In this document: positions 18,359 to 20,581 of the stretch, in pieces
Position numbering within the stretch: the first letter of the stretch is position 1
Layout of the letters: every line of letters begins with the position of its first letter
Assembly: GCA_025455125.1 (NCBI GenBank)
Contig: JALONE010000002.1
Location: 1-28,036, forward strand
Direction of reading: 5' to 3'
DNA from: Bacteroidota bacterium
GTDB lineage: Bacteria; Bacteroidota; Ignavibacteria; UBA10030
DNA: 28,036 bases
Program-made: the position numbers and the translations under genes
The notes under the pieces: generated by a model
What the model was told of the DNA's origin: nothing
What the model saw: the letters and a program-made list of their open reading frames with translations, nothing else
Database searches by the model: none

Positions 18359-18459
18359 CACCACGAAGACACGAAGAAAGACAATGCCTGAAGTCCAGTC
18401 CTTGATCTGCTTTGAACACAATTGCCTGTCGTTCTTGGTGTCCTCGTGTCTTGGTGGTG
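18359..18459. repeat. Nonamer-period imperfect inverted repeat (empty GxxExxY-flank type)
   Basis: caccacgaagacacgaag (18359-18376) matches the reverse complement of 18442-18459 at 16/18. Confidence 0.8.
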
Positions 18460-18466
18460 GTATACT
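18458..18466 (+). promoter_or_regulatory. Extended -10 promoter (TGnTATACT) for msrB
   Basis: tg-g-tatact 24 bp upstream of ATG 18491; same TGnTATACTTCA 12-mer as at 6252. Confidence 0.55.
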
Positions 18467-18490
18467 TCAACGGCACGACAGAGAAAGCAC

Positions 18491-19069
18491 ATGAGAACGA
18501 TGCCATTCAATCTCGGGATTCTGCTGCTGCTGATGTTCATTTTCGCTTCCTGCGGGAGCAGTGAGAATCCCCAATCCCGGAAGATGCCGGAGAAGGAATC
18601 AACGATGACGTGGAGTGATGTCGAGCGTTATGCGCGTGAGGGGAGTCCCAAGCCCGACCGTCGTGTCGAGAAGACACCTGAGCAATGGCGCGCGCAGTTG
18701 ACGAAGGAGCAGTATGCGGTCACGCGAATGAAGGGAACGGAACGGCCGTACACGGGCGAGTACTGCGAATCTCACGAGCCGGGAATCTACGCCTGCGTGT
18801 GTTGCCGGACGGAGCTGTTCGATTCGCGCGTGAAGTTCGAATCGGGGACGGGGTGGCCGAGTTTCACAGAGCCGATAAAGGTGAACGTCATTTCGTACCA
18901 CGAGGACGAATCGTACGGGATGTCCCGGATCGAGGTCTTGTGCAACGTCTGCGACGCGCACTTGGGCCACGTGTTTCCCGACGGACCGGGGAAGGGGGGC
19001 TTGCGGTTCTGCATCAACTCAGCGTCGCTGGTGCAAGTGGACAGTGTGGGAAATGCTATAACGCACTGA
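18491..19069 (+). CDS. msrB: Peptide-methionine (R)-S-oxide reductase with lipoprotein signal
   Basis: GTERPY, Zn-binding CVCC and CNVC, KFESGTGWPSF, HLGHVFPDGP and RFCINSASL. N-terminal lipobox FAS-C. Confidence 0.95.
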   Translation: MRTMPFNLGILLLLMFIFASCGSSENPQSRKMPEKESTMTWSDVERYAREGSPKPDRRVEKTPEQWRAQLTKEQYAVTRMKGTERPYTGEYCESHEPGIYACVCCRTELFDSRVKFESGTGWPSFTEPIKVNVISYHEDESYGMSRIEVLCNVCDAHLGHVFPDGPGKGGLRFCINSASLVQVDSVGNAITH

Positions 19070-19508
19070 GCGTGTTAGCCACGCCGTCGTGGATCCAAGT
19101 CCAAGAGGCCATGCATGCCTCGCTCGACCTTGAGGGGACCAATCGTTGAAACGATGCGATGATCGTTTGGAGTTCCTGGGGCGAGCGAATGCGGCTATTC
19201 TGGTAGGGTCCGGCGAAGAGGCGGCCTGAGCGTCGATAGCGCCTATTACAGCGACGCGCCACGCTGGTTTGAACGCGGTGCATCATGCGGGAAATGCTCC
19301 CGCCGACATTCTGCTCGAGAATCAGTTGGAATTCTTCCGATGCAAGAGAGCGCGCGAGTATCCGCACGTTTTCCTGTTTGGAGGTCGTTGCGAGGACTTT
19401 GAGCATGTGGTGATAATCCGCATCGTCCCGGAATATGGGCGTGAACGCCGTTCCACGATTCGAGATGAGATAGGGGATGAGATCGATGATGGGGTCGGTG
19501 CGGTTCAT
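19056..19508 (-). mobile_element. RAYT/TnpA(Y1) HUH-transposase-like ORF, intact frame but catalytic residues replaced
   Basis: YLISNRG, IFRDDADY, ILARSLASEEFQLILEQ, SISRMM and NRRYRRSGRLFAGPY align with the RAYT scaffold. No HuH motif or catalytic Tyr. SD AAGGAG at 19527-19522. Confidence 0.75.
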
Positions 19509-19536
19509 GGTGGACAGATCTCTCCTTAAGTCTCCC

Positions 19537-19582
19537 GAAGGTTCCCTTCAGCTTAAATACGACATACATGAAGGGAACCTTC
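19537..19582. repeat. Perfect 14-bp inverted repeat with 18-nt loop (REP-like candidate)
   Basis: gaaggttcccttca (19537-19550) / tgaagggaaccttc (19569-19582). Confidence 0.85.
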
Positions 19583-19687
19583 AAGTTCAATCTGCCCACC
19601 AGCTTCTCTTGCAAGATCGTCCTCTTTCCCCCTCCACGCAACAAAATTCGTCCTGCATTTCCGGGAAAAATGTCTCTATCTTTGTCC

Positions 19688-20581
19688 ATGCTTCCCTTCC
19701 CCGGCGAACTTGCCGCCCTCGCGACCGCCTGCATGTGGACCGCCAGCTCGCTGGTCTTCGCTGCCGCGACGATCCGCATCGGCTCCATCTACGTCAATGT
19801 CACCCGCATCATCGCCGCCGCCGTGATGCTCTTCATCCTCCTGCTTCTCTTCGGATTGCACGTCGAGATCTCCGCTTCTCAAACGGGATTTCTCTTTGTG
19901 AGCGGTCTCGTCGGACTCGTCTTCGGCGATACCTTCCTTTTCAAATCGTACGAATACAACAGCGCCCGCATCAGCTCGCTCGTGATGTCCACCGCACCGG
20001 CACTTTCCGCCGTGTTCGGCTATCTTCTGCTCGATGAAACACTCTCCCCCATCGGCATCGTCGGTATGGCGATCACCCTCGCCGGCATCGCCATGGTGGT
20101 CCTCGATCGCCCCGATTCCTCGAGTTCCGCGATGCATCCTTCCACGATCGGCATCTTCTACGCGTTCCTCGGCTCCGTCGGTCAGGCCGGCGGTTTGATC
20201 CTCGCCAAGGCCGCGTTCGTGCAAGGACCGATCAACGGCTTCGTCGCAACCTTCGTCCGGATGTGCGCCGCCTTCGTCGTCATCCTGCCGCTCAATTGGC
20301 TCGCCGGGCGCTATCGCGAACCGCGGCGGGTCTTCACGCAGGATCGAAGAGCATTTTGGTTGACAATGCTCGGAGCAGTCCTTGGACCCGTCCTTGGCGT
20401 CACACTCAGCTTGGTCGCTGTATCCTACACGACGGTCGCGATCGCAGCGACGCTCATGGCAACGGTTCCGATCCTGATGCTGCCGACGGTGTGGTTCCTG
20501 CAGAAAGAACGCCTCACGTTCCGGGCGATCGTCGGGGCATTCGTGGCGGTAGGCGGCGTTGCGTTGTTGTTCTTGCGGTGA
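19688..20581 (+). CDS. DMT/EamA family transporter
   Basis: About 10 TM in two EamA halves (SGLVGLVFGDTFLF, LLDETLSP, QAGGLILAK, LQKERLT). ATG 19688 is preferred over 19568. Confidence 0.92.
   Translation: MLPFPGELAALATACMWTASSLVFAAATIRIGSIYVNVTRIIAAAVMLFILLLLFGLHVEISASQTGFLFVSGLVGLVFGDTFLFKSYEYNSARISSLVMSTAPALSAVFGYLLLDETLSPIGIVGMAITLAGIAMVVLDRPDSSSSAMHPSTIGIFYAFLGSVGQAGGLILAKAAFVQGPINGFVATFVRMCAAFVVILPLNWLAGRYREPRRVFTQDRRAFWLTMLGAVLGPVLGVTLSLVAVSYTTVAIAATLMATVPILMLPTVWFLQKERLTFRAIVGAFVAVGGVALLFLR

Follow-up and report, generated by a model that had tools for sequence, protein, structure and literature searches.

A conserved RAYT-like protein devoid of catalytic residues beside a REP-type hairpin in Ignavibacteria: a probable domesticated, hairpin-binding descendant

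The TnpA proteins of IS608 and ISDra2 and the TnpA-REP protein read hairpins in single-stranded DNA (ssDNA), and cleavage by these enzymes needs a metal bound by the HUH motif as well as a tyrosine. The host role of REP-associated tyrosine transposases (RAYTs) and of the repetitive extragenic palindromic (REP) sequences is a long-standing open question. RAYTs have been described as domesticated, catalytically intact transposases, and REPINs decay after a frameshift in the RAYT gene (bioRxiv 10.1101/2021.07.10.451892); a phylogenomic survey was restricted to the sequences carrying HuH and Y, all others being regarded as pseudogenes (PMC6006769). In our study, a RAYT-like open reading frame (ORF) of 150 codons was analysed, which is located between msrB and the divergent gene of an EamA-family transporter in a stretch of 28,036 nucleotides (the window; contig JALONE010000002.1 of assembly GCA_025455125.1, from an Ignavibacteria member of the Bacteroidota) and has a perfect hairpin upstream of its start. 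The HUH histidines and the tyrosine are replaced in this ORF and in its orthologues, which are therefore called dead here. The ORF is very probably a conserved non-catalytic derivative of a RAYT under selection. The full reading, to which we assign a probability of about 0.6 from sequence comparisons, is that of a domesticated descendant which would still bind the hairpin. A full-text literature search of incomplete coverage found no description of a conserved RAYT without HUH and Tyr.

The source genome is a metagenome-assembled genome (MAG) of 55% completeness in 396 contigs (G000), and it was compared with a sister genome which is its close relative (G001) and with a 100% complete genome of the same genus (G002). 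Syntenic orthologues, which the preliminary description had proposed as a check on domestication, were found in two further lineages with intact ORFs and the same catalytic losses. P0003 (150 amino acids, 56% amino acid identity) is present in the sister genome and in eight related MAG or metagenome contigs, and P0004 (164 amino acids, 41% amino acid identity) comes from a JGI metagenome. These were obtained from a word-index search (two proteins), an exhaustive phmmer search (which added the cluster P0004) and a scan of GTDB genomes (only the sister genome), and a metagenome scan with the hairpin as query returned nine loci and no new dead RAYT.

The assignment of the protein to the Y1/HUH family, which the preliminary description had made from motifs, is confirmed. 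With Pfam PF01797 (Y1_Tnp), the gathering cut-off of which is 23 bits, the dead protein obtains only 19.2 bits and P0003 only 13.3 bits, and P0004 is not matched at all, whereas active relatives reach 41-44 bits. Against NCBIfam NF047646 (the REP_Tyr_transpos equivalog) it scores 21.3 bits with a cut-off of 80, under which the active Ignavibacteria relatives likewise remain (66-68 bits). The homology is secure despite the sub-threshold Pfam score because three other lines agree on it. An exhaustive phmmer search over 1.8 billion cluster representatives gave 1744 matches at E<1e-3, the best of which are RAYT-like proteins of 180-215 amino acids, and a family profile of 74 sequences matched E. 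coli TnpA-REP (PDB 4er8) with an E-value of 1.5e-8. The AlphaFold2 model built on the same alignment of 74 sequences (pLDDT 90.7, pTM 0.85) retrieved only Y1 transposases (ISDra2, IS608, IS200 and TnpA-REP) among its top 30 Foldseek matches in the PDB, and it was aligned with 4er8 over 123 columns with TMq 0.68 and a root mean square deviation of 2.0 Å.

The alignments bear out that the scaffold is retained while all catalytic positions are changed, as had been read from the single sequence. The N-terminal motif Y-H-V-Y-N-R-G of active relatives is (P-)Y-L-I-S-N-R-G in the window, the HUH motif P-N-H-Y-H is replaced by S-E-E-F-Q and the Tyr helix R-Y-I-H-L-N-P by A-S-F-Q-R-L-V. The three dead sequences have SEEFQ, PTEFR and PTEFH at the HUH columns and ASFQRL, ESFRR and AKMFQM at the Tyr-helix columns, without any tyrosine in the helix; both sets of columns are thus substituted in all three, and they are intact in most relatives. 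The motifs NRG, IF.D..DY, GS(I/L), R..GRLF.GPY and W.W are retained. The dead clade has 47 invariant residues, with Glu59, Phe60, Glu65 and Gln66 among them. As the protein lacks both catalytic hallmarks of a RAYT and stays under the two curated thresholds, it is a RAYT derivative and not a RAYT. None of the three dead proteins matched the defence models of PADLOC.

When the three dead sequences were placed together with 29 active relatives in a maximum-likelihood tree, they grouped as one clade with support of 100/99, the stem of which has a length of 1.82 changes per site in comparison to a median terminal branch of 0.68. Since they form one clade on a long stem, the alignment and tree fit a single loss of the metal-binding histidine pair and the nucleophilic tyrosine before the three lineages split. 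In all three lineages the order is EamA, a spacer of 160-180 nucleotides with the hairpin, and the ORF, and the downstream gene varies (msrB in the source genome, PAD_porph in the sister genome and Peptidase_S9 in the JGI contig), so that only the EamA-hairpin-ORF unit is conserved. In each of the three lineages the dead gene occurs once and in synteny with EamA, yet this cassette has diverged far more deeply than its flanks. EamA as a general neighbour of RAYT genes was considered and rejected, as 18 active relatives have neither EamA nor msrB within 1.5 kb.

The substitution pattern of the ORF is that of a coding sequence. The identity between the window and the sister genome is 0.62/0.76/0.39 by codon position, and the non-synonymous divergence (dN) is 0.395 with saturated synonymous divergence (dS), giving a dN/dS of ~0.12-0.24 by two methods; between the sister genome and the JGI lineage the ratio is 0.37-0.38. 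When 41% random substitutions were simulated, the frame stayed open in 0.9% of the copies. The more recent changes in three within-lineage pairs comprise 4+3+0 synonymous vs 1+2+0 non-synonymous codon changes (7 vs 3), and three or fewer non-synonymous changes out of 10 have a binomial probability of ~0.004 if about three quarters of random changes are taken as non-synonymous, which is our own approximation. The pair of the G000 type has five changes in 450 nucleotides of the ORF vs 20 in 728 nucleotides of the flanks, and the pair of the G001 type has no change in the 450 nucleotides of the ORF. The JGI pair (L041/L076) shows the opposite trend to these two lineages in small numbers, as five of the six differences in 1586 aligned bases fall inside its ORF of 492 nucleotides (three synonymous and two non-synonymous). 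The ORF is intact in every dead-clade copy seen, and neither a broken frame nor a neutral substitution pattern, the marks of a pseudogene, was observed in any of them. Judged from these comparisons, the gene is under purifying selection since its inactivation and its evolution is fast but constrained. The selection check proposed in the preliminary description thus gave a coding-like answer (dN/dS of ~0.1-0.4 with saturated dS), and its claim of a 150-codon ORF without stop or frameshift is upheld; the span up to 19582 given there includes the hairpin, as the ORF itself spans 19056-19508.

The second half of the argument concerns the hairpin. Its arms (19537-19550 and 19569-19582) are 14 nucleotides long, 100% complementary and 18 nucleotides apart, and the structure lies 28 nucleotides upstream of the ATG of the dead ORF (29 in the preliminary description, which had otherwise located this inverted repeat in the EamA spacer correctly). 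As ssDNA it has a predicted folding energy of -13.9 kcal/mol (z = -5.8 vs shuffles). The core arms of the hairpin family are 13 nucleotides long and read GAAGGTTCCCTTC / GAAGGGAACCTTC. Active relatives (L015, L016, L018 and L019) are flanked by like hairpins with 13-bp arms of the GAAGGTT(T/A)CCTTC type and a loop of 18-22 nucleotides, which deviate from the dead-clade hairpin at compensated pairs only; one of these hairpins is present upstream of the RAYT start at a distance of 16-17 nucleotides (measured at L015 and L016). On the sequence evidence, the hairpin can be identified as the cognate REP of this subfamily of RAYTs, because the nearest active members are flanked by the same hairpin type. 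The REP-like nature suggested earlier thus stands, and a variant of the hairpin is repeated in the genome. The spacer gave only chance-level matches in Rfam, and no consistent GTAG-type tag beside the hairpin was seen in the dead-clade copies when they were inspected by eye. In a related observation, the frames of several active RAYTs (L016-L019 and L022) continue into the flanking REP arms and are translated as E-G-F-L or S-E-G-L; since these frames read into REP arms, their annotated C-termini are likely to be artificially extended.

A stem table of 22 hairpins from dead-clade and active loci showed variation at stem positions 1, 3, 6, 8, 10 and 13 without a single G-T wobble, and only four non-Watson-Crick pairs were found, all of them outermost and in two degenerate copies. 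All dead-clade copies have C-G at stem position 8, where the hairpins of the active loci have T-A or A-T. Beside the dead gene itself, the arms of the window and of the JGI lineage are identical in 13 of 13 positions with an unrelated loop, and the hairpin of the sister genome has two compensated pair changes. As the compensation is exclusively Watson-Crick, this pattern argues for a constraint at the level of DNA.

Hairpins with C-G at this position (C-type) are found in four copies in the source genome and six in the sister genome, in none in the complete genome of the same genus, which also lacks the dead gene, and in 0-1 copies in 58 other relatives. The C-type hairpin and the dead gene thus occur in the same genomes, which is suggestive and no statistical proof because the genomes are kin. 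The T/A-type REP is present at low copy number (1-7) in 11 of 61 related genomes, and the genomes with active relatives carry 1-7 hairpin copies. The counts of the hairpin pattern were 7+7 vs 0 in a reversed-pattern control, and the copies are intergenic or at gene ends. Neither high copy number nor clear REPIN doublets were found, each of the 4-6 copies per genome being a single long-loop hairpin. The hairpin forms the core of a multi-box module (in order: TTAAGG...TCCGCC box, hairpin, GCTGGTGAGCA, GATCTTGCAAGA and GGAATTT.CTTGCG), copies of which adjoin gene starts and are only 70-85% alike within one genome.

Three hairpin sites are present in one and absent from the other of the source and sister genomes, in both directions, with flanks of 90-96% identity. 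The empty alleles retain nested left parts of the module and their boundaries vary (the GATCTTGCAAGA box also forms one indel boundary at the pdxJ site), and for these reasons deletion of the hairpin part seems likelier than insertion or gene conversion. The module as a fixed mobile unit of 190 nucleotides was rejected because the empty sites retain different left parts. One metagenome contig seemed to have its hairpin replaced at the G001_C403 site, but this was found to be uninformative, the entire contig being only 87% identical.

With these data the alternatives to domestication can be weighed. The first is a slow relic, in which the RAYT function is lost, the gene drifts towards a pseudogene and the REP population decays. 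The missing catalytic residues, the long stem branch with fast evolution, the low hairpin copy number and the three present/absent sites, deletion-like in their variable boundaries and microhomology, would all be expected of such a relic, and the published model of REPIN decay after loss of RAYT function (bioRxiv 10.1101/2021.07.10.451892) and the handling of HuH/Y-less homologues as pseudogenes (PMC6006769) would place it there. We nevertheless consider it unlikely, as the ORF is full-length without an indel frame break in three lineages at saturated synonymous divergence, the codon-position pattern and the 7:3 recent changes are those of a constrained gene, a random frame would stay open in less than 1% of cases, and the stem next to the gene is identical between lineages in which loop and spacer have been randomised. 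The preference of the preliminary description for domestication over a decaying pseudogene is thus supported, and none of the outcomes which it named as refuting was encountered.

The second alternative is that the protein is still an enzyme with a non-canonical site, in which Glu59 and Glu65-Gln66 would bind the metal and another nucleophile or hydrolysis would be used, and that it moves or removes hairpins. The invariance of Glu59, Phe60, Glu65 and Gln66, the hairpin segments present or absent in both directions between well-conserved flanks, and the lack of a close active paralogue or a T/A-type REP in either genome would be in keeping with this. On the other side, no Tyr or Ser at or near the nucleophile position is conserved in all three sequences, the nested left parts with variable boundaries fit deletion better than site-specific transposition, the 70-85% likeness of the copies within a genome speaks against a recent burst, and other intact RAYT and IS200 enzymes are available in the genome. 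Residual catalysis is hence quite improbable.

The third alternative assigns the hairpin to an unrelated factor, or to RNA structure alone, as an operator or leader element, the function of the protein being unrelated. The leader (19495-19625, minus strand) folds with z = -4.7, and a basal helix is predicted in which GCTGGTGGGCAGAT, upstream of the hairpin, pairs with ATCTGTCCACCAT, which ends in AUG; this pairing is only partly kept across the three sequences. The predicted leader recalls the occlusion of the start site by the IS200 tnpA leader (PMC4513863), and a contribution at the RNA level is possible from the folding model. The basal helix, which involves the bases directly before the AUG, and the embedding of the hairpin in a multi-box module by gene starts may be taken to favour such a factor. 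However, the same hairpin type flanks active RAYTs without EamA nearby, several copies of the variant are seen only in genomes with the dead gene, and Watson-Crick-only compensation without any G-U or G-T pair is unusual for a purely RNA element, which makes this alternative very improbable.

The source genome also holds two intact RAYT-type genes of other subfamilies (C246, and C9 which is partial) and two intact IS200-type TnpA genes. The idea of the preliminary description that the dead protein may act as an antagonist, competing for hairpins or forming heterodimers with active RAYTs and so restraining REP processing in a dominant-negative or immunity-like manner, is the least probable of all, since the retained fold, these resident genes as targets and the deep allelic divergence between near-identical flanks, as in many conflict loci, are offset by the facts that the resident active RAYTs are only ~24% identical and have other flanking repeats, that T/A-type and C-type hairpins are absent beside them and that E. 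coli TnpA-REP reportedly acts as a monomer.

Under the reading of a domesticated hairpin-binding protein, the dead protein would recognise the hairpin without cutting it, ssDNA being the likeliest target and the RNA of the 5' leader in its own transcript a possible one. Bound to this leader and to the small number of dispersed copies, it may tune or repress itself and EamA, and elsewhere pdxJ and other genes. Alternatively, it may shield the hairpins from processing or compete with other nucleases.

Several points weigh against this reading. Only three lineages are available and dS is saturated, which makes the dN/dS values crude, and the rate of evolution of the dead protein is about threefold that of EamA. 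Its C-terminal third is shorter than that of active RAYTs and the 3' hairpin is gone. The dispersed copies are apparently being deleted and may not all be under selection, and the hairpin of the locus itself could be conserved for the regulation of EamA by another factor. Regarding expression, which had been proposed as a check, contigs in four metatranscriptome assemblies are at least 99% identical over 19173-19596 (a segment with the hairpin, the leader and the greater part of the ORF), so that the ORF and its leader do occur in RNA libraries; the contigs are unstranded and may stem from DNA carry-over, and the stretch itself served to select the runs, which leaves them a weak sign of expression of the dead ORF.

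The features of the locus and the three present/absent hairpin sites are collected in the table.

Table. Coordinates of the features at the dead-RAYT locus (positions in the window) and of the hairpin sites which differ between the source genome (G000) and the sister genome (G001)
Feature	Position	Strand	Remarks
Dead RAYT-like ORF, 150 amino acids	19056..19508	-	Uninterrupted; zero stops, zero frameshifts
Catalytic sites of the dead ORF	residues 57-61; residues 118-122		HUH position S-E-E-F-Q; Tyr-helix position A-S-F-Q-R
REP-type hairpin, 46 nt	19537..19582	unassigned	Perfect 14-nt arms, 18-20-nt loop
TTAAGG(AG) box, earlier read as Shine-Dalgarno	19522..19530	-	From module alignment; kept in ORF-less repeat copies
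Palindromic box GATCTTGCAAGA	19607..19618	unassigned	Component of the repeated module; left edge of the diverged island
EamA-proximal part of the spacer	19619..19669	unassigned	93-97% identity to G001
Divergent EamA-family transporter gene	19670..20581	+	Neighbour of the dead RAYT in 3/3 lineages; start position likely
msrB (SelR) gene, convergent	18422..19069	+	Downstream neighbour of the dead ORF only in G000
Diverged island (box, hairpin and ORF)	19050..19629	unassigned	53-72% nucleotide identity to G001 vs 93-98% in both flanks
pdxJ upstream site	G000 C191:17495-17611; L046 1458-1574		G000 117 nt; G001 10 nt
Peptidase_S9 3'-side site	L049 965-1101		G000 1 nt; G001 137 nt
Third site, G000 C305 / G001 C364	L051 1285-1361		G000 0 nt; G001 77 nt; 6-nt microhomology

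The AAGGAG reported earlier as a Shine-Dalgarno sequence is indeed present on the minus strand (19527->19522), but at 13 nucleotides from the ATG its distance is long for that role. In view of this spacing, and as the TTAAGG box recurs in repeat copies without an ORF behind them, the reading is doubtful and AAGGAG is probably a part of the repeat rather than a good Shine-Dalgarno sequence. The overlap of 14 bp with msrB was also confirmed, the 3' ends of the two genes meeting tail-to-tail. The EamA-proximal part of the spacer contains additional boxes of the module on the minus strand, of the GGAATTTTG.TTGCG and GATTT.CCAG types. A 12-mer box of the ACGATTTCCCAG type adjoins gene starts in module copies (for example window 19655-19666, minus strand) and occurs, with two or fewer mismatches, 181 times in the source genome vs 48 times in a reversed-genome control; from these counts it may serve the organism generally as a promoter or leader motif. 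Gene callers place the EamA start at the ATG at 19568 (a 337-amino acid ORF), within an arm of the hairpin. The real start is likely to be the one given in the table, because of sequence conservation and the 297-amino acid calls of the orthologues.

The box, the hairpin and the ORF form a diverged island between near-identical flanks. Between the source and sister genomes, EamA has a dS of 0.20 and a dN of 0.015, and the dS of msrB and of Redoxin is 0.20 and 0.15, respectively. The dN of the island (0.395, compared with the sister locus L005) therefore exceeds the dS of its neighbours (0.15-0.2). In the sister genome, PAD_porph lies between the dead ORF and msrB and is translationally coupled to msrB. 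Hypermutation as the cause was rejected, as the within-population pairs have no consistent excess of changes in the ORF. For the same reason the island looks, from its sequence, like the recombinational import of a deeply diverged and very old allele, with PAD_porph gained or lost simultaneously.

The dead clade may have company. In an alignment of the 150 best cluster representatives, a ranking biased by the dead query, at least one of the two HUH histidines is missing from ~31 (21%), many of which are without the Tyr as well. This set comprises a family of ~180 amino acids starting with MPYRY (examples of the whole set are P0013, P0021, P0037, P0038, P0041, P0044, P0075, P0121 and P0151, and also P0015, P0020, P0056, P0120 and P0029) and forms of 300-520 amino acids, among them P0029 with an SH3_3 domain; none of the examples reached the threshold of a curated family. 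Judged from these alignments, RAYT-like proteins of the non-catalytic kind seem to recur in metagenomes and to lack annotation. A more extended proposal is tentative and rather doubtful at present: the dead protein would be a structure-specific hairpin-binding regulator which governs, through sites derived from REPs, a small regulon of EamA, pdxJ and other hairpin-tagged genes, and it would be one member of a wider, so far unrecognised non-catalytic RAYT-like class including long membrane and SH3 fusions. If true, HUH transposases would have been converted repeatedly into nucleic acid-binding host factors in bacteria. The dead RAYT separates binding from cutting and would therefore allow the question of whether the recognition of hairpins by itself serves the host in regulation, protection or genome architecture to be addressed in a natural setting.

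In comparison with known systems, the dead protein shares the fold and the scaffold motifs of RAYT/TnpA-REP (4er8, NF047646, PF01797), and like these its gene is a single chromosomal gene beside a cognate palindrome which is also dispersed. It differs in the replacement of the HUH histidines and the Tyr and in its scores below both curated cut-offs, and the gene differs in the shorter C-terminus, the presence of a 5' hairpin only, the loop of ~20 nucleotides and the very low copy number. The active RAYTs of the Ignavibacteria subfamily (for example P0019, the loci L015-L019 and P0005, which is the nearest active protein) are its nearest relatives in the tree with 31-41% identity and have the same hairpin with a 13-bp stem and a 20-nucleotide loop upstream of the start, whereas they keep YH.YNRG, PNHYH and RYIHLNP, have 185-215 amino acids and hairpins on both sides, carry T-A or A-T instead of C-G at stem position 8 and are not adjacent to EamA. 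With IS200/IS605 TnpA (IS608 and ISDra2) the dead gene shares the Y1 HUH fold and a subterminal hairpin upstream of the gene, and the predicted helix of its leader would likewise occlude the start region as in the IS200 tnpA leader; on the other hand, it is a single syntenic copy and no mobile insertion sequence, without a right end or catalytic residues. The frameshifted RAYT of Neisseria gonorrhoeae (bioRxiv 10.1101/2021.07.10.451892) has in common with it the loss of RAYT function and the few eroding repeats, whereas the present case has an intact ORF, apparent purifying selection in three deep lineages and a strictly conserved stem adjacent to the gene.

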